Origin: Oscillospiraceae bacterium
GTDB lineage: Bacteria; Bacillota; Clostridia; Oscillospirales; Oscillospiraceae
Assembly: GCA_015068235.1 (NCBI GenBank)
Contig: SVKY01000001.1
Span: 5,660 to 69,659, forward strand
Direction of reading: 5' to 3'
DNA length: 64,000 bases
Position numbers and translations under genes: made by a program. This document shows positions 29,839-64,000 of the stretch, piece after piece (the first letter of the stretch is position 1; every line of letters starts with the position of its first letter). The notes below the pieces were generated by a model that was given only the letters and a program-made list of their open reading frames with translations, did not search any database and had not been told where the DNA came from.

Positions 29839-30170
29839 TTGAATCTCCTCGGGGTATATCATCGTGAGGGATATTATACTCCGATTCATATAAATTGTCA
29901 ATGAAAAGAACTGTGAACATTTACAAATTAATTTCGAAATTGTTATTTCTTTGTTCATAATTCGGTAATAAACATATTTTATACTTTGGGTGTAAAGAGG
30001 AAGAACTGCTGCACTTCTGATTTACAAATGCAATCTTTTCATTTATCTCTCTTTTTTATTTTCCCTCTCTTTTTTGTGTGGATTCCTGCTTGTCTTTTGC
30101 CAATGGGACAAGCAGGAATTCTCTATTATGCTTTCCTCCACAATAAGTATCGAGTGTTCCCATAAAATGA

Positions 30171-30199
30171 TTGATTTTTCTCTGAGAATATGATATCTT
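30171..30199 (+). promoter_or_regulatory. Sigma-A-type promoter for the riboswitch transcript
   Basis: TTGATT, 17-nt spacer, TATCTT. Confidence 0.45.
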
Positions 30200-30203
30200 A
30201 ACG

Positions 30204-30345
30204 GCATGCGGAGGGAAGTCGGTGAAAATCCGGCACGAGCCCGTCGCCGTAATGCGCAAACAAAGGCACAGCCTTACCCGATGCCGTAAAGGGGAAATGC
30301 CATTGGCGTAAGCTGAGAAGGTGGTTGTGTTGGCGCTAAAGTCGG
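30204..30345 (+). promoter_or_regulatory. Cobalamin (B12) riboswitch
   Basis: The core GAGGGAAGTCGGTGAAAATCCGGCACGAGCCCGTCGCCGTAA and the B12-box-like GCCATTGGCG...GAGAAGGTGG match the conserved cobalamin riboswitch pattern. Confidence 0.8.
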
Positions 30346-30423
30346 AATATCTTCGCATAATAACTCACAAAAAAAGATCGCGAGTGCCGATTGTGTGAGA
30401 AATTATTTTGAAGGAGAAATGCT

Positions 30424-39690: not shown

Positions 39691-40371
39691 ATGCGCATTG
39701 GAGGGCTGCAAAAGCTGACTTTATTGGACTTTCCGCAGAAAGTTGCATGTACTGTGTTTCTGCAGGGCTGCAATTTCCGCTGTCCGTTCTGCCATAATAC
39801 GCCGCTTTTGATCGGAACGCAGGAACTTGCACAAGATGAACTTTTCAATTTTTTGAAAAAGCGCCAAGGCATGCTTGACGGAGTTGCCGTCACAGGCGGT
39901 GAGCCATTGATCAATTCCGACATTGCTTCCCTGCTGCGCAAGATCAAGGAGCTTGGTTATGCCGTGAAGCTCGATACCAACGGTTCATTTCCCGAGCGTC
40001 TGAGCGCACTGATCGATGAGAATTTGGTCGATTATGTGGCGATGGACATCAAAAACAGCCGCGAAAAATATGAATTGACAGCCGGAGCAAAAGACATTCT
40101 GCCCGCTGTTGAAAAAAGTGTCCGTCTTCTCTTAGACGGCAAAATTCCCTACGAGTTCCGTACCACAATTGTGGATGAGCTGCACGAGCCTGAAGATTTC
40201 CATGACATTGGGCACTGGCTTTCGGGCGCTGGGGCATATTTTTTGCAGAGCTTTGTGGATTCAGGTCAAATCCTATCAGACGGCATGAGCCCACCGAGCA
40301 AGGATAAAATCGAAAAATGCCTGGCAATTGCCAGTCAATATATATCCAATACCCAAATCCGTGGTTTATAA
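39691..40371 (+). CDS. nrdG: Anaerobic ribonucleotide reductase activating protein (radical SAM)
   Basis: GGLQKLTLLDFPQKVACTVFLQGCNFRCPFCHN. GGAGGG lies upstream of ATG 39691. Confidence 0.88.
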   Translation: MRIGGLQKLTLLDFPQKVACTVFLQGCNFRCPFCHNTPLLIGTQELAQDELFNFLKKRQGMLDGVAVTGGEPLINSDIASLLRKIKELGYAVKLDTNGSFPERLSALIDENLVDYVAMDIKNSREKYELTAGAKDILPAVEKSVRLLLDGKIPYEFRTTIVDELHEPEDFHDIGHWLSGAGAYFLQSFVDSGQILSDGMSPPSKDKIEKCLAIASQYISNTQIRGL

Positions 40372-40393
40372 TATTCGAAAAGGAGAATGTATC

Positions 40394-43915: not shown

Positions 43916-46885
43916 TTATGCAATTGCTCTGTACAGGAACGTTACGATCTGACCACGGGTGCAGCTTGCATTCGGGGCAAACTTTCCACCGCCGACACCC
44001 TGTGTGACATCATTTTCTACCGCCCAAAGGACCGCCTTGAAGTAGTAGTCACTCGTCTTGACATCGGAGAACGGATTGTTCGTGCTTGCAGGAGCAGGTT
44101 CGCCTTGACTTCTCCACAAGAACGTTGCAACCTGACCACGAGTGCAGGTGGCATTTGGTCCGAAGCTCGTTGCGGACAAACCTGTTGTGATGCCGTTTTC
44201 CACTGCCCAAAGAACTGCCTTGTAGTAGTATTCTCCTGCCTTAACGTCCTTGAAGTTATTCTTCGTAGAGGTTGGCTCGGGACTGCCGCAGGCTCTCCAC
44301 AGGAAGGTCACGATCTGACCACGGGTGCACGGCGCATTCGGTGCAAAGCTCGTTGCGCTCATGCCGTTGGTGATGTTCTTTCCAACCGCCCACAAAACGG
44401 GAGTTGCAAAATAATCGCTTTCCTTCACGTCCGTGAACGGATTTTCCGTCGGGGTTTCTGGCTCGTTGGGCTGGTCCGTCGGTTCAGAAGGCTCTTCACT
44501 TGGTTCGGAAGGTTCTTCACTGGGGTAGGAAGGCGCCTCACTCGGCTCTGTGGATTCCTCGCTTGGCTCGGACGGCTCCTCGCTCGGCTCGGTTGTCTCC
44601 TCACTCGGCTCAGAGGGTTCCTCGCTCGGTTCGGAGGGTTCCTCACTCGGTTCGGAGGGTTCCTCACTCGGTTCAGTCGGTTCCTCGCTCGGCTCGGTCG
44701 GTTCTTCCTCAGATTTCGAGTAGTTAAAGTGAATTAATTTATTAATTAAACTATCTGTTAAAGCGACGTTGTCAAATCCAACTGCAATTTCATGCCAAGC
44801 TTCTTCAGAGCCGCTGTAATAGATTTCCAGACTGTTCGATCCTGTCTTTGAAAACGCAGATTCGCCAATAATAGAAACAGTTTCGGGAATGATTAAATAT
44901 CTAAGGTCAAAACAGTTTGCGAATGCACTATCGCCAATGATGATCACGCCGTCCGGAATCTCATAGCTGCTGGAATAGATGTTCGCACCGTCCGGAAGCT
45001 CACACTTACCGTAATAATTCTCCGGACATTGGATCAATTTCGTTTTTTCTTTGTTAAACAGGACACCATTCGCATCAGAACTATAATACTGATTTGCTTC
45101 ATCAACCCAAATCTCATTTAAGCTGCCGCAGTTATAGAACGCTTTCTCACCAATACTCGTCACGTTTTTAGGAATGGTTATGCTCGTCAAGCTTCTGCAC
45201 CAGTAGAATGCCGATTCTCCGATGCTTTTTACACTCTCGGGAATGTTTACACTTTTCAAGCTATAACAATGGGTGAACACGCTGTCACCAATGCATGTCA
45301 CGCCGTCAGCAATCGTAACACTCGTCAGTTTTTCGCTGTCAGAGAATGCTCTGTCAGCAATCGTCAACGTATTACTTCTGACAGTATAGTCTCCTGTAAC
45401 ACTATTACGTGCTTCAATTAGATGTCTACCGATGTACAAAACATCAATTTCCCAATTACTTTCTTCGTTATAGTATGCAGTGCTTCTAAACGCACCGTCT
45501 CCAATACTTGTCACGTTATCAGGAAGCGTTATATTTGAAAGCGCTGAGCAACTCCAAAACGCACCGTCTCCAATACTTTTCACGCTATCGGGAATTATTA
45601 TGCTCGTCAAGTTGACACATGACGAAAATGCATAGTCAGAAATTATCAATGTGTTGCTTCGGATTGTGTACCCATCGGCGATGGTCTCTTTTGCCTCAAT
45701 TAAATACTTGCCGATATATAAAACATCGTTTTCCCAATTACTTTCTTCGTTATAATAAGCAGTATTAGAAAAAACACGACCGTTCATGCTTATTACACTA
45801 TCTGGAAGAGTTACGTTTGTCAAGCTGGTGCAGTTTGCAAACGCAGAACTACCAATACTCGTTACGCCATCAGGGATAGTCACGCTCGTCAAATGACTGC
45901 AACTATAGAATGCACTATCACCGATGCTCGTCACGCTGTTGGGAATGGTATATGCTCCGGAATATGTAACAGGGCACTTTATCAACTCCGTTTTTTCCTT
46001 GTTAAACAAGACACCACTTGCATCAGAGCTGTAATATTGGTTCGCCTCATCTACCAAAAAACCAGCTAAACTGTCGCAGAAAGAAAATGCATTATCGCCA
46101 ATGAATGCTACGCTCTCTGAAATTGTTACACTCGCTAAACTGCTACAGTCGGAGAATGCTTGATCACCAATTCTCATCACGCCGTTGGGAAACGTCACAC
46201 TTGTCAGACCGGTGCAAGAAAGGAATGCCGTACTTTCAATACTTATCACACTATTAGGAATTGTTACATCCGTCAGGTCGTAGCAGTATGAAAAACTGCT
46301 CTTACCAATGTTTGTCACGCTATCGGGAATCGTTATATTCGTTAGATTGCTGCAACTATGAAAACATCTGTCGCTGATTTTCGTCACACTATTGGGAATC
46401 GTTATGCTCGTTAGACTGTAGCAGTTTTGAAAAGCACCCTGACCAAAAATCGTTACGCTGTCGGGAATCATTACGCTTGTTAGACTGCTGCAGAAAGAAA
46501 ATGCCTGCATTCCAATGGTCGTGACACTATCGGAAATCGTCACACTCGTCAGGCTGGAGCAGTCAGAGAACGCATCATTACCGATGCGCGTTACGCTGTC
46601 GGGAATCGTCACGCTCGTCAGGCTGTCGCAGCCATAGAACGCACTATTGCCGATGTCCGTGACGGCGACACCGTCGATTTCAGCTGGGATATCGGCGCTG
46701 GTTACGGTATCGTCGCAATCGGTGATGGTACCGGTTGCTTTGTCGAAATAGATATTGCCGCCCTCGACGGGGTAAACAATATCCGTTTCGGAATAGGCGC
46801 TTACTTGCGTCAGTGGGAACATGGATAGCAGCATTGCCATGCAAAGCAGCATTGCTATCAGTTTTTTACATCGTTTTGTTTTCAT
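43916..46885 (-). CDS. Cell-surface protein with a signal peptide, many BspA-type leucine-rich repeats, an (E/P/S/T)-rich linker and three C-terminal SLH domains
   Basis: MKTKRCKKLIAMLLCMAMLLSMFPLTQVSA. Roughly 23-aa units of the form SVTxIGxxAFxxCxxLTSVTIPD. Three copies of F-DVK-x-DYY...AVLWAVENGIT-G...F-PN-x-CTRGQ-VTFLWR. Confidence 0.85.
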   Translation of the reverse strand: MKTKRCKKLIAMLLCMAMLLSMFPLTQVSAYSETDIVYPVEGGNIYFDKATGTITDCDDTVTSADIPAEIDGVAVTDIGNSAFYGCDSLTSVTIPDSVTRIGNDAFSDCSSLTSVTISDSVTTIGMQAFSFCSSLTSVMIPDSVTIFGQGAFQNCYSLTSITIPNSVTKISDRCFHSCSNLTNITIPDSVTNIGKSSFSYCYDLTDVTIPNSVISIESTAFLSCTGLTSVTFPNGVMRIGDQAFSDCSSLASVTISESVAFIGDNAFSFCDSLAGFLVDEANQYYSSDASGVLFNKEKTELIKCPVTYSGAYTIPNSVTSIGDSAFYSCSHLTSVTIPDGVTSIGSSAFANCTSLTNVTLPDSVISMNGRVFSNTAYYNEESNWENDVLYIGKYLIEAKETIADGYTIRSNTLIISDYAFSSCVNLTSIIIPDSVKSIGDGAFWSCSALSNITLPDNVTSIGDGAFRSTAYYNEESNWEIDVLYIGRHLIEARNSVTGDYTVRSNTLTIADRAFSDSEKLTSVTIADGVTCIGDSVFTHCYSLKSVNIPESVKSIGESAFYWCRSLTSITIPKNVTSIGEKAFYNCGSLNEIWVDEANQYYSSDANGVLFNKEKTKLIQCPENYYGKCELPDGANIYSSSYEIPDGVIIIGDSAFANCFDLRYLIIPETVSIIGESAFSKTGSNSLEIYYSGSEEAWHEIAVGFDNVALTDSLINKLIHFNYSKSEEEPTEPSEEPTEPSEEPSEPSEEPSEPSEEPSEPSEETTEPSEEPSEPSEESTEPSEAPSYPSEEPSEPSEEPSEPTDQPNEPETPTENPFTDVKESDYFATPVLWAVGKNITNGMSATSFAPNAPCTRGQIVTFLWRACGSPEPTSTKNNFKDVKAGEYYYKAVLWAVENGITTGLSATSFGPNATCTRGQVATFLWRSQGEPAPASTNNPFSDVKTSDYYFKAVLWAVENDVTQGVGGGKFAPNASCTRGQIVTFLYRAIA
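44479..44710 (-). repeat. About eleven in-frame 21-nt repeats encoding EEPSEPS/EEPTEPS
   Basis: GAGGAACCCTCCGAACCGAGT-like units seen directly in the DNA. Confidence 0.8.
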
Positions 46886-52754: not shown

Positions 52755-55262
52755 TTATATCGTTGATTTTGCGGTGTCGATGCCGTCCCCTTGGAGCTTC
52801 AGCCGTTCGACCGCTTCTTCGCGCATTTTGTATTTCAAAATTTTTCCTGCCGCATTCATCGGGAAAGAATCGACAAAGCAGATATATTTCGGTACCTTGT
52901 GACGTGCCATACTCGCCTTAATAAAATCCGTCATTTCCTGTTCAGAAACCGAGCCGTGCTCTTTGAGGATGATGCACGCCATGATCTCCTCACCGTATTT
53001 TTTATCCGGCACACCGATGACTTGAACATCTCTGACCTTCGGATGTGTATAGATAAATTCCTCGATTTCTTTGGGATAAATGTTTTCACCGCCACGGATG
53101 ATCATGTCCTTGAGTCTGCCTGTAATGCGATAATTTCCATCCTGATCTCTGCACGCCAAATCGCCGGAATGCAGCCAGCCTTCGCTGTCCACCGTGTCAC
53201 GAGTTGCATCGGGCATCTTGTAATAGCCCTTCATCGTGTTGTACCCGCGAGAGCAGAATTCGCCGTTGACACCATCAGGAACTTCTTCGCCTGTCTCGGG
53301 ATCGATGATCTTGCATTGAATATGTGGGAACGCATAACCGACCGTATCGCATCGCAAATCGATTGGATCATCCCAGGAGGACATCGTGCTGCCCGGTGCA
53401 GATTCCGTCTGACCGTAAACGCTGACGATCCCTCGCATATTCATCTCGTCTTTCTGCGCCGCTCTGCGCATCAAATCAGGCGGACAGCCGGCACCAGCCA
53501 TAATGCCTGTACGCATATAGGAAAAGTCGGTTTTTCTATAATCCGGATGGTTAAACATTGCAATGAACATCGTCGGCACGCCGTGGAAGCAGGTAATATG
53601 CTCCTGATTGATGCACGCAAGCGAGGATTTTGCCGAAAAATACGGCAACGGACACAGCGTTGCACCGTGGGTCATAGCAGCTGTCATTGCAAGCACCATG
53701 CCGAAACAGTGGAACATCGGTACCTGGATCATCATGCGATCGGCAGTGGACAGATCCATACGGTCACCGATACATTTTCCATCATTGACAACATTGTAGT
53801 GTGTCAACATAACACCTTTGGGAAAGCCTGTTGTGCCCGATGTATACTGCATATTGCAAACATCGTTGGCTCTGACATTCGCTGCCATGCGATGGACTTC
53901 TTCAATCGGCGTTAAGCTTGCTCGTTCCATCGCTTCATCAAATGTCAAACAGCCGTTTTGGCGGAAGCCAACCGTAATTACATTCCGCAAAAATGGCAGA
54001 CGTTTGCAATGCAAGCTCTTTCCCACTTTCGTGTTCTCAATTTCAGGACAAAGGGTATTTATGATCTCTTTGTAATTAGAATCCAAGCATGATTCAATCA
54101 TCACGAGAGTGTGCGTGTCGGACTGTCTGAGCAGATATTCCGCTTCATGGATCTTGTAAGCCGTATTGACCGTCACCAAGATCGCACCGATCTTCGTTGC
54201 CGCCCAAAATGTAATATACCACGCAGGCACATTTGTTGCCCATATTGCGACCTTACTGCCTGCACGTACACCCATGGAGATCAATGCTCTTGCGAAATTA
54301 TCAACATCTTCTCTGAATTCTTCGTATGTTCGTGTATAGTCTAAGGTCGTATACTTAAACGCATACTGATCCGGGAATTCCTCAACCACACGGTCCAACA
54401 GCTGTGGGAATGTCAGATCAATCAGTTCATCTTTTTTCCACAGGAACTGACCTGAGTGATCGTGGTTGAAATAAAGAGACTTTTTCATGCTTCGGGGCGA
54501 GTCAAAGCGGTTCATATAATTGACAAAATACGGAAAAATAATGTCACGCTCCTGCAGATCCTCCATCCATTCGGGCTTCCATTCCAACGAAATAAAGCCA
54601 TCGTAGTTGATCGAGGACAGCGCACGCATCATATCGGCAACGGGAAGTGTTCCCTCTCCGATCAGATTATAAGTATCCTTATTATCCGAATCACGCAGAT
54701 GCACATGGCGCACATAGGCACCTAAATTCTTGATCGTTGTGTCTGCGCTCTCGCCCATATCCCGATAAGGATGATGCATATCCCAAAGTGCACCGAGATG
54801 ATCGGACGCAAATTCATCCATCACATTTCGAAGCCTTGCCGTATCTGCAAAAATGCCACTCGTTTTGATCAGCAATGTAACGCCGAGCTCCTGTGCATTG
54901 TCCAGTAGCTTTGCAATCCGTTCACGCACAAGCACTTCATTCTCCGTCAGTGCACAGGCGACGACATATTCCACCTTCATCTGTCGTGCGATGTTCATCA
55001 AATCATAAAGCATTTCAATCTTTTCGCCTTCATCTGACAAATCGCACGACGTGTCAAAGCATGGAATTGCCAGCTTTTTCTCTCTAAGCTGACGTGCAGT
55101 CACTGCCAACTGATACTTCTCAAAAGCGCCGCCACGCTCTGTCATGGCGCTTTTATGCAGATTATAGACCTCAATTCCGTGAAAACGCATGTCGATTGCC
55201 GCATCTATCTGCGCTTGCCACGGCAAATCCAGCCAACCTCTTGTGGAAAAGGAGAGCTTCAT
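52755..55262 (-). CDS. Fusion protein: xylose-isomerase-like TIM barrel (about 280 aa) plus AMP-dependent acyl-CoA synthetase (about 550 aa)
   Basis: N-terminus MKLSFSTRGWLDLPWQAQIDAAIDMRFHGIEVYN...HLRDSD. The C-terminal part has YTSGTTGFPKGVMLTH, YGQTES, LHSGDLA...GRLKDMIIRGGENIYP and AAGKILK. ATGA overlap with the upstream gene. Confidence 0.8.
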   Translation of the reverse strand: MKLSFSTRGWLDLPWQAQIDAAIDMRFHGIEVYNLHKSAMTERGGAFEKYQLAVTARQLREKKLAIPCFDTSCDLSDEGEKIEMLYDLMNIARQMKVEYVVACALTENEVLVRERIAKLLDNAQELGVTLLIKTSGIFADTARLRNVMDEFASDHLGALWDMHHPYRDMGESADTTIKNLGAYVRHVHLRDSDNKDTYNLIGEGTLPVADMMRALSSINYDGFISLEWKPEWMEDLQERDIIFPYFVNYMNRFDSPRSMKKSLYFNHDHSGQFLWKKDELIDLTFPQLLDRVVEEFPDQYAFKYTTLDYTRTYEEFREDVDNFARALISMGVRAGSKVAIWATNVPAWYITFWAATKIGAILVTVNTAYKIHEAEYLLRQSDTHTLVMIESCLDSNYKEIINTLCPEIENTKVGKSLHCKRLPFLRNVITVGFRQNGCLTFDEAMERASLTPIEEVHRMAANVRANDVCNMQYTSGTTGFPKGVMLTHYNVVNDGKCIGDRMDLSTADRMMIQVPMFHCFGMVLAMTAAMTHGATLCPLPYFSAKSSLACINQEHITCFHGVPTMFIAMFNHPDYRKTDFSYMRTGIMAGAGCPPDLMRRAAQKDEMNMRGIVSVYGQTESAPGSTMSSWDDPIDLRCDTVGYAFPHIQCKIIDPETGEEVPDGVNGEFCSRGYNTMKGYYKMPDATRDTVDSEGWLHSGDLACRDQDGNYRITGRLKDMIIRGGENIYPKEIEEFIYTHPKVRDVQVIGVPDKKYGEEIMACIILKEHGSVSEQEMTDFIKASMARHKVPKYICFVDSFPMNAAGKILKYKMREEAVERLKLQGDGIDTAKSTI

Positions 55263-56662
55263 ACCTCCGCCTCCTCGTATACGATTTTATTCAATGCGCT
55301 CAAATAAGCTCGGATACTCGAACCGACGATATCGGTTGAAATACCACAGCCTGAATAGAGCTTTCCTTCCGAGCGCAGCTTGACCACCGTCTGACCCATT
55401 GCCTCGGTACCCTCGGTGACAGATTGAATTTGGAAATCGTCGAGTTCATAATGTCTGCCCACGATCTGCTCAATTGCCAAAAAAGCCGCATCAATTGGAC
55501 CATCACCAATGCAAACGCGCTCTAAATTAGCATCCTGTCGTTTGAGCTTCATATGTGCAGTTGCTGAGATCGTGTTGCCTGCGGTGATGACATAATTGTC
55601 AAGAACATATGTCGGCGGCACCTGCATCGCAGCCGATGCCACAATGGCGTCAAGCTCTTTTGCGCTGACCTTTTCCTTCTTCTCGGCAATTGACTTAAAT
55701 GCCTCATAAACAGCCGCACTGTCCTCTTCGGAAAGATCATAGCCCAAATGAACGACCGCCTGCGCAACCGTTGAAACATCGTCATGCACTGTTAAATAAT
55801 CGCTCTCGTCACCTTCTCGAACACCACTTTCAAACGGCGAGGTATCGCTTTTTTGAATCGTGCACATTCGTTCGATCTGCTTGCAAATTCTTCGCATCTG
55901 CGTGGTTTGGATCGTGCTTCGCAGCGCAAAAGCGTCCTCCTTTGCAGCAATCACACGGGCAATATTTTCAACGCTTGCCGTGTTGCGAGGGCAAACCGCA
56001 GCCTTGATTTCATCGACTCCACACGAAAGTGAAGCAACCACACAGGCATTTGCCATGCTGAGTGTATCATTGCAGCGTACACCAACATGAATTTCTTTCA
56101 ATTCAGGCAGTGCATCATAGACAGATTGGACAAATGCCTTGAATTCATCAGGCAGCATCGTTCCTGCAGCATCACAAAGTGTGACGCTCTGCGCGCCTGC
56201 ATCCATTGCGGTCTTGAGCGCACGGATCAAAAAAGTTGAGTCGCTACGTGTAGCATCATCGGCAATAAATTCAACATCATCGCAGACCTCACGGCAATTT
56301 TTGACCGTTTCTTCGATCGAAGCAAGCATCGCCTCAGGCTTCTTGTGGAACAGATATTCCATCTGCACTGCACTGACAGAAGCTCTTACCTGCAAACGAG
56401 GATGTTTTGCTTCCTTTAACGCCTGTATGCTCATTGCAACGCTTTGGGCATTTAATTCCACAGGTACGGCAACAATGCTCTGCTTAACGGCAAGTGCGAT
56501 CGATTTGATCAGCAAGGTATCGATCTTCGTCCGCTTGATCCCATCCAATTCGATCACGCTCACACCAAGCTTATCTAAAAGCTTGGCAAGCTCGATCTTT
56601 TCCTTAAAACTCAGACAATCGCCCTGCTGCATTGTAACATCACTGATTTTGATCGACTTCAT
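55259..56662 (-). CDS. 2-isopropylmalate-synthase-like (HMGL/DRE-TIM plus LeuA dimer/regulatory domain) protein with substituted catalytic motifs
   Basis: ISDVTMQQGDC occupies the place of DTTLRDGEQ, and GVRCNDTLSMANA occupies the place of HCHNDLGLAVAN. The C-terminal LeuA-allosteric-like domain is well preserved (GDGPIDAAFLAIEQIVG...VTEGTEAMGQTVVKL). Confidence 0.65.
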   Translation of the reverse strand: MKSIKISDVTMQQGDCLSFKEKIELAKLLDKLGVSVIELDGIKRTKIDTLLIKSIALAVKQSIVAVPVELNAQSVAMSIQALKEAKHPRLQVRASVSAVQMEYLFHKKPEAMLASIEETVKNCREVCDDVEFIADDATRSDSTFLIRALKTAMDAGAQSVTLCDAAGTMLPDEFKAFVQSVYDALPELKEIHVGVRCNDTLSMANACVVASLSCGVDEIKAAVCPRNTASVENIARVIAAKEDAFALRSTIQTTQMRRICKQIERMCTIQKSDTSPFESGVREGDESDYLTVHDDVSTVAQAVVHLGYDLSEEDSAAVYEAFKSIAEKKEKVSAKELDAIVASAAMQVPPTYVLDNYVITAGNTISATAHMKLKRQDANLERVCIGDGPIDAAFLAIEQIVGRHYELDDFQIQSVTEGTEAMGQTVVKLRSEGKLYSGCGISTDIVGSSIRAYLSALNKIVYEEAEV

Positions 56663-56677
56663 AATTGTTCTCCTAAC

Positions 56678-56932
56678 AAAAAAATCCCTGAAGCTCACGC
56701 TTCAGGGACGAATTTCAAAATTCGCGGTACCACCCTGCTTATCCCCGGAGGGATCACTCTCAGGCTCAAACAAGCCTTCTGCCGATAACGGGGCAACCGT
56801 GCTTCACTACATTCTCGCAAAGCCGACTCGGGAGGGAGAGCGTCAAATCCACGTTTATCGGCTCGCAGCGACCGCCGACTCTCTGAAAACGCAAACAGAT
56901 TCAACTTAGCTCCGTCAACATCTTTTGCTGTT
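56678..56932 (-). promoter_or_regulatory. T-box leader 1, inferred specifier CUC (Leu), with terminator
   Basis: On the minus strand: K-turn TTGACGGAG...CTCCCGAG, CAGAGAG, the T-box AGCAGGGTGGTACCGCGAA (plus coordinates 56721-56739), the terminator TCCCTGAAGC-GTGA-GCTTCAGGGA followed by TTTTTTT, then the RBS. CUC lies at 56836-56838. Confidence 0.85.
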
Positions 56933-56938
56933 AAAAGC

Positions 56939-57004
56939 ATTAAATCACAAAAACATGAAATTGTCAAGAAAAATATTGACAATCGCTTTTCAGTGTGATA
57001 AAGT
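56939..57004. promoter_or_regulatory. Back-to-back divergent sigma-A promoters for T-box leaders 1 and 2
   Basis: Minus strand: TTGACA (56962-56967), 17-nt spacer, TTTAAT (56939-56944). Plus strand: TTGACA (56976-56981), 17-nt spacer, TAAAGT (56999-57004). Confidence 0.55.
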
Positions 57005-57010
57005 AAATGC

Positions 57011-57270
57011 AATAAAGCAAAAGCGTTGACGAAGACGGTCGAATTTTAGTGCTTTCAGAGAGCCGATGTTTGGTGTAAATCGGCAGCATTTGATTCAGTA
57101 CCCATCCCTTCCGAGCCGGAGACCCAAAGATCACACCCAGTAGGCTCTCCCGTATATCTGCGTTAAGGATTAGAGCTTGTTTGAGCTCGAAGAGTGCGGT
57201 TTTTGCCGAAATTGAGTGGTACCGCGGGCGAAATGTATGCTCGTCTCAAGAGAGATCTTGAGACGTTTTT
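57011..57270 (+). promoter_or_regulatory. T-box leader 2, inferred specifier AUC (Ile), with terminator
   Basis: GCGTTGACGAAG...CTTCCGAGC K-turn, CAGAGAG, the distal TGGTGTAAA, the T-box ATTGAGTGGTACCGCGGGC (57209-57227), and the terminator CGTCTCAAG...CTTGAGACG followed by TTTTTTT. AUC lies at 57114-57116. Confidence 0.85.
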
Positions 57271-57296
57271 TTATTTTCTTCAAGGAGGAATCATCG

Positions 57297-59555
57297 ATGT
57301 CAAGCACAACACAATTAATGGAAATTGCCCTTCGTATTCGCGAAATGCGACAAATCGAAGGCTATTCGATCGAAGAAATGGCGGAAAGAACAGCAATTTC
57401 GGCAGAGCTTTATCGCTCCTATGAAACAGGAACCGTTGATCTTCCCTTTTCATTCATTCATAAATGTGCCCTATCCTTCGGAATTGAGATTTCGGAGCTT
57501 TTAGAAGGACATAGTGCTCACCTTTCCTCCTATGCTGTCACTCGTAAAGGTATGGGTAAGCAAACCGCCAAAGAAGAAGGTATCTCGATCGTCAATTTGG
57601 CACCCCGCTTCCGTTCGAAGATCGCCGAACCTTATTGGGTCACCTATGAATATAACAAGGAACAGGAGCAGCGTCCCATTCAGCTTGCAACGCACAGCGG
57701 ACAGGAATTTGATCTGGTTCTGCGTGGTCGCTTGAAGGTTCAAATCGGTGATCATATCGAATATCTTGACGAGGGCGACAGTATTTATTACAACTCCTCG
57801 ATTCCGCACGGCATGGTTGCTGTGGACGGTCGCGATTGTCTCTTCTGCGCCGTGGTCCTTCCCGGAGAAGAAGTTGAGGAACAAGAGATTCGTCGCAGCT
57901 TGATCAGCGCAAAGCGCAGTGAACCGTATATTTGTCAAAAATTCATTGAGACAACGGAAAATTCCGACGGCGCACTTCAAACAATCGCGTTTAAGCAGGA
58001 AGATAGCTTTAACTTTGCCTTTGATATCGTCGATGAGATCGCCAAGAAATACCCCAACAAGCGTGCAATGCTGCATTTGGACAAGCATCAAAACGAACGT
58101 GATCTTACCTTTGAGGATATGCGCAAGGGTTCTTCCAGAGCGGCGAACTATTTCAAAGCTCTTGGCGTTAAGCGTGGCGACCGTGTGATGCTGGTACTCA
58201 AGCGCCACTATCAATTCTGGTATGCGATTTTGGGTCTGCACAAGCTCGGTGCGATCGCCATTCCTGCAACCAATCAGCTTTTAGAGCACGATTTCAGCTA
58301 TCGTTTTAAGGCGGCAGGCGTCAGTGCAATCCTCTGCACCGCAGACGGTTCTACCGCAGATGCGGTCGATGTAGCTGCCAAAGAATACTCAGATTTGAAA
58401 ACAAAGATCATTGTCGGTGGCAGCCGTGACGGATGGCATGATTTCGATGCAGAATTTGGACTTTACAGCAGCCGTTTTGAGCGCACAGAGGATGCCCCTT
58501 GCGGCAAGGATCCGATGCTGATGTTCTTTACCTCCGGTACAACAGGCTATCCCAAGATCGCAACGCATGATTACCGCTATCCCCTTGCGCATTTTGTCAC
58601 GGCGAAATATTGGCACGGAGTATCTTCAGAAGGTCTGCACTTTACCATCTCAGAAACCGGTTGGGGCAAAGCACTTTGGGGCAAGCTCTACGGTCAGTGG
58701 CTGTGCGAGGGTGCTGTATTTACCTATGACTTTGACCGCTTTGATGCAGCGGAAATTCTACCGATGTTTGCAAAATATGGCATCACGACCTTCTGCGCAC
58801 CGCCTACCATGTATCGCATGATGATCCGACAGGATATTAGCAGCTATGATTTTTCCTCCCTGCAGCATATTACCAGCGCAGGCGAAGCGCTGAATCCTGA
58901 GGTTTACCGTGTGTTTGAAAAGCAGACAGGTCTGCGCATCATGGAGGGCTACGGTCAGACAGAAACAACCCTTTCCATTGGCAATCTCATGGGACATGCG
59001 CCGAGATTTGGCTCAATGGGCAAGGCAATGCCGCACTTTGATGTGCATCTTCTCGATCCCGATGGCAACGAATGCACAACAGGTGTCAGTGGCGAAATTT
59101 GCATCAAGACCAGCAAAAAAATCCCCTGCGGTCTGTTTATGGGCTATTATCGTGATGAAGAACGCACCAACGACGTTTGGCATGACGGCTATTATCATAC
59201 AGGTGATGTCGCCTGGCGAGATGAGGACGGATATTTCTGGTATGTTGGTCGCGTGGACGATGTGATCAAGTCCTCCGGCTATCGCATTGGACCGTTCGAG
59301 ATCGAAAGCGTGATCACAGAGCTTCCCTATGTACTCGAGTGCGGCGTCAGCGCAGCAGCTGACGAGGTGCGTGGTCAGGTTGTTAAGGCAAGCATCGTTT
59401 TGGTCAAGGGCACAGCGGCGACCGAGGAATTGAAAAAAGAGATTCAAAACTATGTCAAATCTCGTACCGCACCTTATAAATATCCTCGTATCGTGGAGTT
59501 CCGTGAGAGCCTGCCCAAGACGATCAGCGGTAAAATTATCCGAAATAAACTTTAA
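57297..59555 (+). CDS. XRE-type HTH plus cupin domain fused to a medium-chain-type acyl-CoA synthetase (paralog A)
   Basis: HTH: LRIREMRQIEGYSIEEMAERTAIS. Cupin: DLVLRGRLKVQIGDHIEYLDEGDSIYYNSSIPHG. ACS: FTSGTTGYPK, YGQTET, YHTGDVAWRDEDGYFWYVGRVDDVIKSSGYRIGPFEIE and PKTISGKIIR. AGGAGG lies upstream of ATG 57297. Confidence 0.85.
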   Translation: MSSTTQLMEIALRIREMRQIEGYSIEEMAERTAISAELYRSYETGTVDLPFSFIHKCALSFGIEISELLEGHSAHLSSYAVTRKGMGKQTAKEEGISIVNLAPRFRSKIAEPYWVTYEYNKEQEQRPIQLATHSGQEFDLVLRGRLKVQIGDHIEYLDEGDSIYYNSSIPHGMVAVDGRDCLFCAVVLPGEEVEEQEIRRSLISAKRSEPYICQKFIETTENSDGALQTIAFKQEDSFNFAFDIVDEIAKKYPNKRAMLHLDKHQNERDLTFEDMRKGSSRAANYFKALGVKRGDRVMLVLKRHYQFWYAILGLHKLGAIAIPATNQLLEHDFSYRFKAAGVSAILCTADGSTADAVDVAAKEYSDLKTKIIVGGSRDGWHDFDAEFGLYSSRFERTEDAPCGKDPMLMFFTSGTTGYPKIATHDYRYPLAHFVTAKYWHGVSSEGLHFTISETGWGKALWGKLYGQWLCEGAVFTYDFDRFDAAEILPMFAKYGITTFCAPPTMYRMMIRQDISSYDFSSLQHITSAGEALNPEVYRVFEKQTGLRIMEGYGQTETTLSIGNLMGHAPRFGSMGKAMPHFDVHLLDPDGNECTTGVSGEICIKTSKKIPCGLFMGYYRDEERTNDVWHDGYYHTGDVAWRDEDGYFWYVGRVDDVIKSSGYRIGPFEIESVITELPYVLECGVSAAADEVRGQVVKASIVLVKGTAATEELKKEIQNYVKSRTAPYKYPRIVEFRESLPKTISGKIIRNKL

Positions 59556-59575
59556 CTCTTTACTTGCAAAAAGTG

Positions 59576-59861
59576 TTGACAAATGAACCTCGACATGATA
59601 TGATTCTATAAAGACAAAGACGGAGAGAGATTTCTGCACAAATCATCTGCAGAGAATTGGCGGTCGGTGCAAGCCATGGTGATGTGGAAGTCTTGTCGCT
59701 CCCGAGTCGGAGAGAAGAAAGCTTACTGGCGATTAGACCTCTCTCGCGTTAGCTGCGTTAACCGCCTATTGAGTGGCATCCGAACGGATGCAATTTGAGT
59801 GGTACCGCGGGTTGTATTTTCAGCTCGTCTCAAAGGATCAATCTTTGAGACGAGCTTTTAC
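59576..59861 (+). promoter_or_regulatory. Promoter plus T-box leader 3, inferred specifier GUC (Val), with terminator
   Basis: TTGACA (59576), 17-nt spacer, TATGAT (59599). Stem I GACGGAG...CTCCCGAGTC, GCAGAGA, GGTGCAAG, and the T-box ATTTGAGTGGTACCGCGGGT (59792-59811). Terminator AGCTCGTCTCAAAG...CTTTGAGACGAGCT, then TTTT. GUC lies at 59695-59697. Confidence 0.85.
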
Positions 59862-59882
59862 TATTCTCATACAGGAGGAGCT

Positions 59883-62174
59883 ATGCAGGAACAAAAACTA
59901 ACAGGTTTGGAATATAAAATTCGGGAGATGGCATCTCGTATCCGCGAATTGCGCGAGATCACTGGCTTGAGCGTTGCTGAAATGGCAAAGCGCACCGGTA
60001 TCACAATTAGCGAATACGAGCTCTGTGAGGCAGGGCAGACCGATCTGAATATCGCATTTCTTTATCGCTGCGCCCTAAGCTTTGGCGTTGACGTGACTGA
60101 CCTGATCGAAGGTCACAGCCCGAAGCTGCGTTCTTATACCCTCACTCGATCGGGGCGTGGTCAAAAGATCGAGCAGGCGCATCGTATGACCTACTATAAC
60201 CTCGCAGCAGACTTCCGTAATCGTGTTGCGTTGCCTTTATATGTTGTCATTCAATATAACCAGGACGCTGAGCACGAGGACATCGAGCTGACCACACATG
60301 ACGGTCAGGAGTGTGACCTTGTGATCAAGGGCAGCATGAAGATTCAAATCGGTGAGCATACCGAGATTCTGCACGAGGGCGACAGCATTTATTATGACAG
60401 CTCCACACCTCACGGCATGATCGCTGTCGGTGGTGAGGATTGCGCCTTCTATGCGATGGTTTTGAATCCTTCAGACGATGTCGGCTTAACGCCGAAAGCT
60501 GAGAAGCTTCCGACGCCGTCAGCAACGGAAAAAGACGAAGAAAGACGCATCTATCACGATTTTATCATACCTACGGAAAACGTCTCCGGCGGCATTGAAA
60601 AAATCGCTTTTCAAAATGAAGATCGATTTAATTTTGCTTTTGATGTTGTCGATGCTTTGGCAGAACGTAAGCCTGAAAAGCTTGCAATGCTGCACATTTC
60701 CGAAAATGGAACCGAGCGCCGATTTACCTTCTTGGATGTCAAGAAGGAATCTGCCAGAGCCGCAAACTATTTCAAATCCTTGGGCATTCGCCGTGGCGAT
60801 CGAGTCATGCTCGTGCTCAAGCGGCATTATCAATTTTGGTTTGCACTTTTGGGCTTGCACAAGCTTGGCGCTGTTGCGATCCCTGCAACGAATCAGCTCC
60901 AGGCACACGATTTTACATATCGTTTCAATGCAGCAGATGTCCGTGCAATTCTTTGCACAGCAGACGGAGCTACTGCAGATGAAGTTGCGAGCGCCGCATC
61001 GAAGTGTCCGCAGGTCAAGCACCTGATCATGGTAAATGGTCAAAAAGAAGGCTGGCATGACTTTAATGAAGAATATGCCATGTTCAGTAGCCACTTCCAT
61101 CGAAATGAAGACACACCGTGCGGAAACGATCCAATGCTGATGTTCTTCACATCAGGCACATCGGGCTATCCGAAGCTGGCAGCACACAATTACAAATATC
61201 CCTTGGGTCATTTTATTACTGCAAAATATTGGCACCGAGTCAATCCCGATGGTCTGCATTTGACCATATCCGACACAGGCTGGGCAAAGGCTCTTTGGGG
61301 CAAGCTCTACGGTCAGTGGCTGTGCGAAGCAGCGATCTTTGTCTATGACTTTGACCGCTTCGATGCAGAAAAAATCCTTCCGTTGTTTGCCAAGCATCGT
61401 ATCACAACCTTCTGCGCACCTCCGACGATGTACCGCATGCTGATCAAGGGTGATTTGAGCAAATATGATCTGAGCTCGATCGAGCATGCCTCCATCGCAG
61501 GCGAAGCGCTCAATCCCGAGGTTTTCCGACAGTTCCAGAAGGCAACTGGGCTTCAAATCATGGAGGGCTTCGGTCAATCCGAAAGCACATTGATCATCGG
61601 CAACCTCATTGGCGGCAAGCACAAGATCGGTTCGATGGGCAAGCCCGTCCCCCTTTATGATGTACACCTGCTCAGCGCTGACGGCTCCCCTGCTGCACCC
61701 GGTGAGACCGGAGAGATCTGTATCAACATTGCAAACGAGCTTCCTTGTGGTCTAAGCTATGCTTACGAAGGCAGCCCTGATGTCACCGCCAAAACATGGC
61801 GTGACGGCTTCTATCACACAGGCGACCTCGCTTGGAAGGACGAAGACGGCTTCTTCTGGTATGTCGGACGTGCCGATGATGTGATCAAGTCCTCGGGCTA
61901 TCGCATTGGACCGTTCGAAATTGAAAATGTTATCATGGAGCTTCCCTATGTCTTGGAATGCGGCGTTTCTGCTGCGCCCGATGAAGTGCGTGGGCAGATT
62001 GTCAAGGCAAGCATCGTGCTTGTCAAGGGCACGCAAGCATCTGATGAGCTGAAAAAAGAAATTCAGAACTACGTCAAATCTCGTACAGCGCCTTATAAAT
62101 ATCCCCGAATCGTTGAATTCAGAGAAAGCCTTCCCAAAACGACCAGCGGAAAGATCATCCGCAAGCAGCTATGA
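59883..62174 (+). CDS. XRE-type HTH plus cupin domain fused to a medium-chain-type acyl-CoA synthetase (paralog B)
   Basis: Same architecture and motifs as 57297-59555, collinear along the whole length. AGGAGGAG lies upstream of ATG 59883. Confidence 0.85.
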   Translation: MQEQKLTGLEYKIREMASRIRELREITGLSVAEMAKRTGITISEYELCEAGQTDLNIAFLYRCALSFGVDVTDLIEGHSPKLRSYTLTRSGRGQKIEQAHRMTYYNLAADFRNRVALPLYVVIQYNQDAEHEDIELTTHDGQECDLVIKGSMKIQIGEHTEILHEGDSIYYDSSTPHGMIAVGGEDCAFYAMVLNPSDDVGLTPKAEKLPTPSATEKDEERRIYHDFIIPTENVSGGIEKIAFQNEDRFNFAFDVVDALAERKPEKLAMLHISENGTERRFTFLDVKKESARAANYFKSLGIRRGDRVMLVLKRHYQFWFALLGLHKLGAVAIPATNQLQAHDFTYRFNAADVRAILCTADGATADEVASAASKCPQVKHLIMVNGQKEGWHDFNEEYAMFSSHFHRNEDTPCGNDPMLMFFTSGTSGYPKLAAHNYKYPLGHFITAKYWHRVNPDGLHLTISDTGWAKALWGKLYGQWLCEAAIFVYDFDRFDAEKILPLFAKHRITTFCAPPTMYRMLIKGDLSKYDLSSIEHASIAGEALNPEVFRQFQKATGLQIMEGFGQSESTLIIGNLIGGKHKIGSMGKPVPLYDVHLLSADGSPAAPGETGEICINIANELPCGLSYAYEGSPDVTAKTWRDGFYHTGDLAWKDEDGFFWYVGRADDVIKSSGYRIGPFEIENVIMELPYVLECGVSAAPDEVRGQIVKASIVLVKGTQASDELKKEIQNYVKSRTAPYKYPRIVEFRESLPKTTSGKIIRKQL

Positions 62175-62857
62175 TACGCCGTTTGACCCTCTTTGCAGGG
62201 CACTATGGAAGCGGAAAGACCAATATTGCGGTAAATTATGCTGCATATTTGCGAAAGCAAGGCTTCGCTGTGACGATTGCAGATTTGGACATCGTTAATC
62301 CTTATTTCAGAACAAAGGACAGCGAAAAGCTGCTTAATTCTCTTGGAATTGATTTGATCTGTTCCCCTTTTGCCAACAGCAACTTAGATGTTCCTGCCAT
62401 GCCGGCAGAGGTTTACAGTCTAATCGACAGCCGAACGACGCATGGCGTATTGGATATCGGCGGCGATGATCGTGGTGCGTTGGCACTTGGCAGATACGCT
62501 CCGATGATCAAAGAAGAGAATGATTATGAGATGCTTTTTGTGATCAACCGTTCTCGCCCACTGACTCGCTCTGTGGAAGAGACGCTTCATGTCATGCGTG
62601 AGATCGAAACAGCATGCTCACTTCCCTTCACCGCCGTTGTCAATAACACAAATTTGGGGCGCCATACCACAAAGGAGGACATCCTTGCATCATTGGATTA
62701 TGCAAAAGGCGTGTGCAAAGCAAGCGGTCTTCCGCTTAAAATGACAACGATTCACCACCCGTTATATTCTGAATTGCAATCACATATGAACGACCTGTTC
62801 CCCATACATTTACAGGAACAATACTACGAACTTAGAACGGAGGCCACACATGGCTAA
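62171..62857 (+). CDS. SIMIBI-class P-loop NTPase (MinD/CooC/Mrp-like), function unknown
   Basis: Deviant Walker A FAGHYGSGKTNIAVNYA and LDIGGDD. ATGA overlap with the upstream synthetase, and 8-nt overlap with the downstream ferredoxin. Confidence 0.6.
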   Translation: MIRRLTLFAGHYGSGKTNIAVNYAAYLRKQGFAVTIADLDIVNPYFRTKDSEKLLNSLGIDLICSPFANSNLDVPAMPAEVYSLIDSRTTHGVLDIGGDDRGALALGRYAPMIKEENDYEMLFVINRSRPLTRSVEETLHVMREIETACSLPFTAVVNNTNLGRHTTKEDILASLDYAKGVCKASGLPLKMTTIHHPLYSELQSHMNDLFPIHLQEQYYELRTEATHG

Positions 62858-63056
62858 ACTGACATTCAAAGAAGAATTGTGCAAAGGCTGCGGTCTTTGC
62901 GTCAATGCCTGTCCGAAGGGGCTGCTTGCACTTTCGAGAACAAGGCTGAATCAAAAGGGGCATTCCCCCGTCGAATTAACAAAGCCCGAAGATTGTATCG
63001 GGTGTGCATTCTGCGCAACCATGTGTCCTGATTGCGTGATCACGGTAGAAAGGTAG
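62850..63056 (+). CDS. 2x[4Fe-4S] ferredoxin, delta-subunit type of 2-oxoacid:ferredoxin oxidoreductases
   Basis: CKGCGLCVNACP and CIGCAFCATMCP. 68 aa, immediately upstream of the alpha subunit. Confidence 0.8.
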   Translation: MAKLTFKEELCKGCGLCVNACPKGLLALSRTRLNQKGHSPVELTKPEDCIGCAFCATMCPDCVITVER

Positions 63057-63062
63057 GCAATT

Positions 63063-64000
63063 ATGGAAAAAGTATTGATGAAAGGCAACGAAGCCATTGC
63101 GGAAGCTGCGATTTTAGCAGGCTGCCGTCACTATTTTGGTTATCCGATCACGCCACAGACCGAGGTTGCCGCTTATATGGCAAAGAGAATGCCAAAAATC
63201 GGCGGCGTATTTCTCCAAGCCGAGAGCGAAATTGCAGCGATCAACATGGTCTACGGTGTTGCCGCTACAGGCAAGCGTGCGATGACCTCATCCTCGAGTC
63301 CCGGCATTGCACTCAAATGCGAAGGTATTTCCTACTTGGCAGGTGCTGATTTGCCTGCTTTGATCGTCAACGTACAGCGAGGCGGTCCCGGCTTGGGCGG
63401 TATTCAGCCGTCGCAGTCGGACTATTTCCTCTGCACCAGAGGTCCCGGACACGGTGACTTCCATGTTTTGGTGCTCGCACCGTCAAGCGTACAAGAAATG
63501 GCTGATTTGACACTCAAGGGCTTCGAGCTTGCTGAAAAATACCGCATGCCGGCAATGCTGCTTGCTGATGGCACAATGGGTCAGATGATGGAGCCTGTTG
63601 TCTTGCCGGAAAAGCTCGAAGCTGCTCCTGAAGCACCCGAATGGGCAACCACAGGCACGCAGGGCAAGCGTAAGCACAACATCGCAAATTCCCTCTATCT
63701 CTCCCCTGCTGAGCTGGAACAGCTGAATTTGGAGCGTTTCCGCCGCTATGCGGAGATCGAAGAAAATGAGTGCATGTGGGAAGAATTTATGATGGACGAT
63801 GCGGAATATTGTGTCGTTTCCTGCGGCATTACCGCTCGTGTTTCCAGAAATGCGATTTTGGAGGCACGTGCAAAAGGGATCAAGGTCGGTATGATCCGCC
63901 CGATCACCCTTTGGCCCTTCCCCAAAAAGCCTTTACTCGCCGCAGCAGACCTTGTCAAATCCTTCCTTGTAGTCGAGCTCAGCATGGGTCAAATGCGTGA
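63063..64000 (+). CDS. 2-oxoacid:ferredoxin oxidoreductase alpha subunit (VorB/KorA type), 3-prime end beyond the window
   Basis: Not in the ORF track because it is open-ended. My translation is MEKVLMKGNEAIAEAAILAGCRHYFGYPITPQTEVAAYMAKRMPKIGGVFLQAESEIAAINMVYGVAATGKRAMTSSSSPGIALK...VQRGGPGLGGIQPSQSDYF. Confidence 0.8.
   Translation, partial: MEKVLMKGNEAIAEAAILAGCRHYFGYPITPQTEVAAYMAKRMPKIGGVFLQAESEIAAINMVYGVAATGKRAMTSSSSPGIALKCEGISYLAGADLPALIVNVQRGGPGLGGIQPSQSDYFLCTRGPGHGDFHVLVLAPSSVQEMADLTLKGFELAEKYRMPAMLLADGTMGQMMEPVVLPEKLEAAPEAPEWATTGTQGKRKHNIANSLYLSPAELEQLNLERFRRYAEIEENECMWEEFMMDDAEYCVVSCGITARVSRNAILEARAKGIKVGMIRPITLWPFPKKPLLAAADLVKSFLVVELSMGQMR

Follow-up and report, generated by a model that had tools for sequence, protein, structure and literature searches.

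A Leu T-box operon pairs a degenerate isopropylmalate synthase paralog with a TIM-barrel/acyl-CoA ligase fusion: a candidate leucine arm of branched-chain fatty acid salvage in gut and rumen Oscillospiraceae

We analyzed a stretch of 64,000 nucleotides (the window) from an Oscillospiraceae bacterium (assembly GCA_015068235.1, contig SVKY01000001.1, positions 5,660 to 69,659 of the forward strand) and focused on a two-gene operon on its minus strand. Behind a leucine-specific T-box leader, this operon encodes a LeuA-like protein that has lost the active site of isopropylmalate synthase (IPMS) and, overlapping it, a fusion of a TIM barrel with an acyl-CoA ligase. We judge it on balance probable that the operon is the leucine arm of a three-armed salvage of branched-chain fatty acids into amino acids, with the pseudo-IPMS acting as a leucine-sensing partner. 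The features of this unit, in coordinates of the window and lengths in amino acids (aa), are the following.

56939 to 56967, minus strand: sigma-70-type promoter, read by eye, with -35 TTGACA at 56967-56962, a 17-nt spacer and an extended -10 TGaTTTAAT (hexamer 56944-56939)
56701 to 56927, minus strand: T-box leader (Rfam RF00230, 106.8 bits against a gathering score of 93, E = 1e-22, model positions 1-219 complete)
56836 to 56838, minus strand: specifier codon CUC (Leu), position taken from the cmscan alignment
56678 to 56707, minus strand: intrinsic terminator, hairpin CCCUGAAGC/GCUUCAGGG with a 9-bp stem, a GUGA loop and U7, read from the sequence
55259 to 56662, minus strand: LeuA-like pseudoenzyme of 467 aa, with a DRE-TIM barrel (aa 1-268), accessory subdomains and a LeuA_dimer regulatory domain (aa 336-467)
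54513 to 55262, minus strand: xylose-isomerase-like (XI-like) TIM-barrel domain, aa 1-250 of the fusion (from Pfam AP_endonuc_2, alignment to 3wqo, family conservation, AlphaFold2 and Foldseek)
52755 to 54407, minus strand: ANL acyl-CoA ligase domain, aa 286-835 of the fusion (AMP-binding 299 bits, AMP-binding_C 62 bits), a predicted isovalerate-CoA ligase

The LeuA-like protein retains the architecture of an IPMS. Pfam recognized an HMGL-like domain (E = 2e-29) and a full-length LeuA_dimer domain (E = 1.5e-30), and an AlphaFold2 model built on a 22-sequence alignment gave a barrel with a predicted local distance difference test score (pLDDT) above 90, which Foldseek superimposed on the LeuA structure 3ewb with a TM score of 0.94 and a root-mean-square deviation of 1.6 Å. 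The regulatory domain of the same model stayed below a pLDDT of 50 and was unusable, and a phmmer search of this domain alone against the PDB returned no LeuA or CMS regulatory-domain match. Residue-level alignment to the LeuA catalytic domains of 3ewb and 3rmj revealed that DTTLRDGE is replaced by DVTMQQGD, HCHDD/HCHND by VRCND, and NGIGERAGN by a shorter CPRNTAS. The substrate-binding Arg and the metal-binding Asp of the LRDG(E/N)Q motif are absent (MQQGD), as are the His-x-His metal ligands, which have R-C-N in their place, so that all three metal ligands are gone; the Arg, Asp and His residues were not found at shifted positions either. In the IPMS of M. tuberculosis, the substitutions R80A, R80K and E218A destroy activity (PMC10464499). 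The best NCBIfam matches are LeuA models, all of them under their equivalog cutoffs, with NF002086 ranking first; its 287 bits fall well short of the LeuA equivalog cutoff of 532. At the level of sequence, the LeuA-like protein comes out as catalytically dead as an IPMS and would be unable to condense acetyl-CoA with ketoisovalerate. An earlier note on this DNA, made from the letters alone, had described an IPMS paralog in which catalysis is degenerate but the C-terminal domain is well kept, and both halves of that description agree with the motif losses and the full-length LeuA_dimer match.

The loss of the active site extends across the family. This family is large: a word-indexed search gave at least 8000 candidates, and the best 120 all show 64-76% identity and lengths of 466-470 aa. 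An exhaustive search of 50%-identity representatives yielded 346 matches at E <= 1e-30; among the matches listed, about 105 full-length members (453-497 aa, 31-60% identity) rank ahead of the first genuine LeuA, P0378, a protein of 516 aa with DTTLRDG, HCHDD and NGLGDRAGN. Conservation was measured on 106 cluster representatives. The columns of the substrate Arg, the metal Asp and the two His residues have entropies of 2.6-3.6 bits against a TIM-domain mean of 2.37 (2.8 and 3.6 bits for the Arg and Asp of LRDG(E/N)Q), and the former active-site columns span up to 3.8 bits. The first His is replaced by E, Q, S or R and the second by S, N or A, and the GIGE segment of the NGIGERAGN loop is deleted in 105 of the 106 representatives, leaving a gap over the Gly and Glu positions. 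Because their entropy exceeds the TIM-domain mean, the former active-site positions are unconstrained across the family. A LeuA relative of 511 aa, P0373, has a half-degenerate site (DTTLCDGEQ, IRAYND for HCHND, and GIGKRAGC); it may be a transitional form in evolution or record a separate loss of activity.

Other parts of the protein are well kept. DATR, the Asp of CDxAG and the first Asp of DxT are near-invariant in the barrel, and the motifs GDGPIDAA and SGxG(I/L)STDIV, common to genuine LeuA, are nearly invariant in the regulatory domain. The regulatory domain stands out as the best-conserved part by a wide margin: its mean identity to the window protein is 61%, whereas the barrel reaches 35% and the accessory region 33%. 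In close pairs, dN/dS is 0.03-0.17 in the barrel and 0.02-0.06 in the regulatory domain; purifying selection acts on the entire protein and most strongly on the latter domain. A decaying relic was considered and rejected, as these ratios are far below 1. We also observed that GAGGAGG within the conserved C-terminal YEE(E/A)E codons (55262-55285, minus strand) doubles as the Shine-Dalgarno sequence of the overlapping gene, and part of the C-terminal conservation may be an RNA-level constraint.

The leader upstream of this gene contains Stem I with a K-turn, the specifier loop and the T-box/antiterminator sequence GGGUGGUACCGCG at 56735-56723. In the cmscan alignment, CUC corresponds to the three bases preceding the closing helix of the specifier loop. 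To follow the specifier in relatives, we used 82 related loci retrieved for gene-order analysis from a scan of one genome per species; the base of Stem I was located automatically in 52 of these Leu leaders, where the specifier reads CUG in 39, CUC in 11 and CUA in one, with one outlier (a Leu codon in 51 of 52), while registers moved by +1 or -1 gave inconsistent amino acids. Synonymous codon variation at a fixed position is the classical signature of a specifier, and the leader can be assigned to leucine because its specifier varies synonymously while the shifted registers lose consistency. The terminator hairpin overlaps the 3' arm of the antiterminator, with which it is predicted to compete, and is followed by AGGAG and then ATG 56662. 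This ATG is the true start of the LeuA-like gene; the GTG at 56698 chosen by the ORF finder, which would give 479 aa, lies inside the terminator hairpin and was set aside for that reason. The putative promoter is a reading of the sequence, and its TTGACAA and TG-n-TTAAAT blocks are kept in the aligned upstream regions of orthologous loci.

The stop codon of the LeuA-like gene overlaps the start of an open reading frame (ORF) of 835 codons by ATGA (55262-55259), and Pfam placed AP_endonuc_2 (aa 20-231, 74 bits), AMP-binding (aa 290-681) and AMP-binding_C (aa 732-807) in this single ORF. Of the ligase motifs, YTSGTTGFPKG, a GYGQTE-like sequence, GRLKD and the C-terminal catalytic GK are all in place, comprising the P-loop (TSGTTGxPKG), the hinge Asp and the C-terminal catalytic Lys, and the domain is a complete ANL enzyme, competent as judged by these motifs. 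Its best NCBIfam match is PRK12583, 'fatty acid CoA ligase family protein', at 667 bits and under the cutoff of 832, and its PDB relatives are 8weu and FadD13 (E = 1e-74). We infer isovalerate as the substrate from the Leu T-box and from the context of oxidoreductase and aminotransferase genes described below. The ligase part is 79-91% identical across loci where the LeuA-like protein is only 55-68% identical, and both barrels outpace the ligase domain in evolution by a factor of 2-4.

The N-terminal barrel of the fusion was modeled by AlphaFold2 with a pLDDT of 89.9. It shares the fold (TM about 0.7) and the D/H, HxHxxD and E motifs of XI-like barrels such as MJ1311 (3wqo), IolI (1i60), UlaE (3cqj) and AsbF (3dx5): by alignment to 3wqo and family conservation, it keeps D161/H164, H186/H188/D191 (HxHxxD) and E227. 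Unlike these proteins, it is fused to an acyl-CoA ligase, and the first metal-ligand Glu of relatives such as MJ1311 aligns with a Thr, beside an invariant Lys133. An N-terminal STRGW is invariant across the family. Foldseek returned only generic sugar isomerase, epimerase or dehydratase folds at 11-18% identity, with no specific functional relative, and a homolog search with the TIM domain found fragments of the same fusion family only and no free-standing relatives. The barrel may be either an enzyme or a docking module.

The association of the two genes is remarkably constant. The species-level scan gave at least 586 LeuA-like relatives, almost all from uncultured gut and rumen Oscillospiraceae such as Faecousia, and the architecture is not a chance feature, because it recurs in these matches in species-representative genomes. 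The TIM-ligase gene directly follows the LeuA-like gene in 82 of 82 loci, with an overlap of 4 nt in 60 and of 1 nt in 11. Among five distant members checked, four keep the pair, with the same partner at 37-42% identity; one LeuA-like member at 35% identity sits alone on a short contig. At L083/L084 (6001-8513), two ORFs, one of 280 aa for the TIM barrel and one of 562 aa for the ligase, overlap by 19 nt, with the split exactly at the domain boundary. This split was seen in two independent samples and may be a genuine unfused variant, and another split ORF, broken inside the ligase, is probably a frameshift. These rare split halves stay adjacent and overlapping in the same cluster, and no unrelated contexts were found for them. 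The Leu-type T-box with a CUC specifier ahead of the pair, the 835-aa fusion and the translational coupling by ATGA had all been proposed in the earlier note, and each stands on the Rfam score and Leu codons, the Pfam domains and the conserved overlap, respectively. In a distant member (L088, 3626-7514), the genes of an ABC transporter, with a TOBE_2-containing ATPase, two permeases and an SBP_bac_1 protein, immediately precede the pair in the same orientation and may encode a substrate uptake system.

The Leu unit has two divergent neighbors on the plus strand that lead into oxidoreductase genes.

57017 to 57251, plus strand: Ile T-box leader, specifier AUC (Rfam, 99 bits)
57297 to 59555, plus strand: HTH(XRE)-cupin-MbcS-like ligase of 752 aa from ATG 57297 (Pfam), a predicted 2-methylbutyrate-CoA ligase
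59608 to 59835, plus strand: Val T-box leader, specifier GUC (Rfam, 95 bits)
59883 to 62174, plus strand: second HTH-cupin-MbcS-like ligase, 763 aa from ATG 59883 (Pfam, NCBIfam), a predicted isobutyrate-CoA ligase
62171 to 62857, plus strand: CbiA/ParA-like (NUBPL-like) P-loop protein of 228 aa (weak Pfam match)
62850 to 63056, plus strand: 68-aa 2x[4Fe-4S] ferredoxin, delta subunit (Pfam Fer4 families)
63066 to 64000, plus strand: VorB-type alpha subunit of a 2-oxoacid:ferredoxin oxidoreductase (VOR), ending at the window edge (tblastn, 73% identity to the alpha subunit of related locus L001)

Three T-box leaders thus lie within 3.2 kb, all above the Rfam gathering score of 93 and all spanning the whole model. 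AUC was found at the specifier of 44 orthologous leaders of the first plus-strand gene; for the Val leader, a script read GUC in 10 and GUA in 5, and a further 10 read by eye, window included, gave GUC in 9 and GUA in 1. The two sister ligases, fused to a helix-turn-helix (HTH) and a cupin domain, have MbcS as their best NCBIfam match (431 bits for the 752-aa protein and 420 bits for the other, under a cutoff of 850). In 17 of 47 loci (including L012, L014, L018, L037 and L042), the second HTH-cupin-ligase has no T-box of its own and starts a few bases after the Ile-controlled ligase, an arrangement in which the Val arm would be governed by tRNA-Ile charging. The fusion of HTH and cupin to a ligase (57017-62174, plus strand) recalls enzyme-repressors of the BirA type, and at L089 an HTH-cupin protein of 185 aa stands free at the end of the VOR operon.

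The ligase, VOR (EC 1.2.7.7) with its ferredoxin, and a branched-chain aminotransferase are encoded together. The alpha subunit of L001 passes the NCBIfam VorB model (3-methyl-2-oxobutanoate dehydrogenase, ferredoxin) with 554 bits against a cutoff of 399, and the class IV aminotransferase of the cluster (IlvE) passes the branched-chain aminotransferase equivalog with 487 against 307. In relatives, VOR alpha is followed by the beta and gamma subunits and IlvE, and most loci carry the Ile and Val T-box ligases, the P-loop protein, the ferredoxin, VOR alpha/beta/gamma and IlvE in at least three gene orders. IlvE comes directly after the Leu unit in several loci, and at L089 the genes for IlvE, the P-loop protein, the ferredoxin and VOR form one operon behind the Leu unit alone. 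The P-loop gene, for whose product no NCBIfam match was obtained, overlaps the Val-arm ligase gene at its stop and the ferredoxin gene at its start. Nearly all related loci have it in this place, with the ligase genes on one side and the oxidoreductase genes on the other; its product could assist the oxidoreductase in Fe-S maturation or assembly.

We infer from this context that isovalerate, 2-methylbutyrate and isobutyrate would be converted by reductive carboxylation to Leu, Ile and Val, respectively, because three amino-acid T-boxes, three acid ligases, one VOR and one transaminase occur together. Under leucine shortage, uncharged tRNA-Leu would pair with the CUC specifier and stabilize the antiterminator, allowing transcription to read through, as the general T-box mechanism predicts. 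The ligase domain would then activate isovalerate to isovaleryl-CoA, which the VorB-type oxidoreductase and ferredoxin could convert to 4-methyl-2-oxopentanoate (ketoisocaproate), provided that direction and flux are as predicted, and the branched-chain aminotransferase of the cluster would turn this product into leucine. A catabolic direction was considered and rejected, the ligase being AMP-forming and predicted to be starvation-induced. The LeuA-like protein, which would perform no condensation but keeps a putatively leucine-binding regulatory domain, would be made stoichiometrically with the ligase through the ATGA coupling and most likely be held in a complex with it, possibly docked on the N-terminal TIM barrel. 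Through this pseudo-IPMS, free leucine would exert feedback on the first ATP-consuming step, as it does on LeuA in the de novo pathway, and allosteric control would be added over the transcriptional control by the T-box. The HTH-cupin modules of the sister ligases might fulfill an equivalent sensor role for Ile and Val. More tentatively, a large and as yet undescribed family of LeuA-derived pseudoenzymes may have been exapted as trans-acting leucine sensors that clamp the ligase, perhaps through its TIM barrel and mobile C-terminal domain, with HTH-cupin modules as analogous sensors; together these would then be the long-missing genes behind the isoacid requirement of rumen and gut, a broader proposal that we rate as somewhat less likely than not.

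All components have known counterparts in kind, namely amino-acid supply under T-box control, pseudoenzymes that serve as regulatory partners, and the reductive carboxylation of isoacids. HisZ is a dead histidyl-tRNA synthetase paralog that serves as the histidine-sensing regulatory subunit of the ATP phosphoribosyltransferase HisG. The LeuA-like protein would resemble it as a pseudoenzyme drawn from the metabolism of the same amino acid, kept for ligand binding and partnered with the first committed ATP-consuming enzyme, although the two share no homology, the partner here is an acyl-CoA ligase, and the complex and end-product sensing are predicted by analogy. Compared with short bacterial LeuA (Listeria 3ewb, Neisseria 3rmj), the protein shares the fold, the domain order of barrel, accessory region and LeuA_dimer, the DATR, DxxG, GDGPIDAA and SGxGxSTDIV motifs and, for some leuA genes, the Leu T-box. 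In contrast to LeuA-type matches of 511-516 aa, it is about 45 residues shorter at 467 aa, and its gene is never beside leuBCD and always coupled to the TIM-ligase. For the chemistry, classical tracer studies of rumen anaerobes by Allison and co-workers reportedly found that isovalerate, 2-methylbutyrate and isobutyrate are carboxylated reductively to Leu, Ile and Val. The predicted VOR reaction and the gut and rumen habitat of these Oscillospiraceae match that route, and the VOR alpha subunit and the aminotransferase pass their model cutoffs, while a 2020 paper calls the reverse reaction 'not proven yet' (PMC7709123).

Several points weigh against a leucine-sensing partner in a leucine arm. 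Leucine binding, the physical complex and isovalerate as substrate are each predicted rather than observed, and coordinated expression under leucine starvation alone is an assumption; in many loci, VOR and the aminotransferase lie behind the Val or Ile leader and not the Leu leader. The regulatory domain, on which sensing would depend, is the part with the low pLDDT and without a sequence match in the PDB. Mirror-tree partial correlations of 0.50 (LeuA-like barrel with XI-like TIM barrel) and 0.54 (regulatory domain with the C-terminal domain of the ligase) were obtained with no proper null model and give a weak hint of contact. Finally, the XI-like barrel, with most of its metal-site residues kept and with invariant pocket residues, may be the enzyme of an unexplained reaction. 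The earlier note had offered two readings, a leucine-sensing pseudoenzyme that regulates an isovalerate-activating ligase, and a new condensation or lyase chemistry. The former is favored by the conserved cluster with Ile and Val T-box ligase units, VOR, ferredoxin and IlvE, and by a regulatory domain that is conserved while the former active-site positions are unconstrained, with its mechanism still a proposal, and the latter is disfavored, as no newly conserved residues have taken the place of the lost ones.

Among the other explanations, the LeuA-like protein might be a structural partner only, an assembly factor or adaptor that tethers the ligase to the oxidoreductase and channels isovaleryl-CoA, with its regulatory domain serving to dimerize or dock. 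The tight translational coupling of the pair, its constant linkage with VOR and the strong purifying selection on a protein devoid of catalytic residues would fit such a role, and the C-terminal domain of genuine LeuA also dimerizes (Pfam LeuA_dimer; PMC9860122). However, the Ile and Val arms feed the same oxidoreductase with no such adaptor, the motifs that the regulatory domain has in common with genuine LeuA hardly vary, and the presence of a leucine-pathway protein in the leucine arm would be a coincidence; we regard this role as unlikely. Somewhat less likely still is a neofunctionalized system in which the LeuA-like barrel, the XI-like barrel or both catalyze a new leucine-supplying reaction, for example on another precursor or on ketoisocaproate. 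It could account for the invariant XI-like pocket (STRGW, K133, D161/H164, H186/H188/D191, E227) and for the DATR and CDxAG motifs that the LeuA-like barrel retains under purifying selection, and both fusions are uncharacterized and without a specific functional match in Foldseek. Yet in the LeuA-like barrel no newly conserved residues make up for the lost Arg, Asp, His and His, whose columns vary more than the domain average, and the loop is missing; the ligase, VOR and IlvE complete a known leucine route that needs no extra step, and the ligase domain evolves 2-4 times more slowly than the barrels.

There is a small chance that the isovaleryl-CoA made by the ligase primes the synthesis of iso-branched membrane fatty acids instead of feeding leucine synthesis. 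MbcS, the methylbutyryl-CoA synthetase of S. aureus and the closest characterized relative of the sister ligases, activates 2-methylbutyrate and isobutyrate, the very acids predicted for the Ile and Val arms, and serves branched-chain fatty acid synthesis (PMC10026030, PMC11167679); rumen bacteria also put branched acids into lipids (PMC7709123). Control by tRNA-Leu charging nevertheless suits amino-acid supply and not lipid primers; VOR and branched-chain aminotransferase genes accompany the units, with IlvE immediately after the Leu unit in several loci. Unlike MbcS with its part in lipid synthesis, the sister ligases of the window bear N-terminal HTH-cupin modules and T-box leaders, and the Leu-arm ligase comes from another ANL subgroup (PRK12583/FadD-like). 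Automated annotation would suggest an ordinary leuA under an ordinary Leu T-box, which we consider highly improbable. Database names differ, one member being called '2-isopropylmalate synthase' by JGI and one 'hypothetical protein' by NCBI; Leu T-boxes are known upstream of leuA (PMC2494555), and the best NCBIfam matches are LeuA models. Against this, the score of 287 bits is far under every LeuA equivalog cutoff, the metal ligands and the substrate Arg are all absent, and there are no leuBCD neighbors. A limited literature search on LeuA pseudoenzymes, T-box-controlled CoA ligases or VOR, and genes for the conversion of isovalerate to leucine returned nothing relevant.

Elsewhere in the window, we noted three further features.

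30165 to 30372, plus strand: cobalamin riboswitch aptamer (Rfam RF00174, 45.8 against 31.5 bits)
40328 to 42757, plus strand: anaerobic ribonucleotide reductase NrdD with an ATP-cone and a C-terminal glutaredoxin/thioredoxin-like domain, followed by a pyridine-nucleotide disulphide oxidoreductase
43916 to 46885, minus strand: 989-aa surface protein with six BspA-type leucine-rich-repeat blocks and three C-terminal SLH domains

The LeuA-like family spans over 100 clusters at 50% identity. Its members can receive the wrong annotation of isopropylmalate synthase, and metabolic reconstructions would then be credited in error with a step of leucine biosynthesis. Gut and rumen contain isovalerate, isobutyrate and 2-methylbutyrate in abundance, and ruminants receive these acids in their feed as growth factors for bacteria that degrade fibre; the Firmicutes genes that turn these isoacids into amino acids have not yet been pinned down. 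Here, the specifier codons assign three ligases to three predicted substrates, making the predicted pathway testable and searchable in metagenomes. If the sensor role of the LeuA-like protein holds, it would be the first case found of an IPMS regulatory domain acting in trans on an unrelated enzyme, and would provide a ready-made leucine-responsive module.

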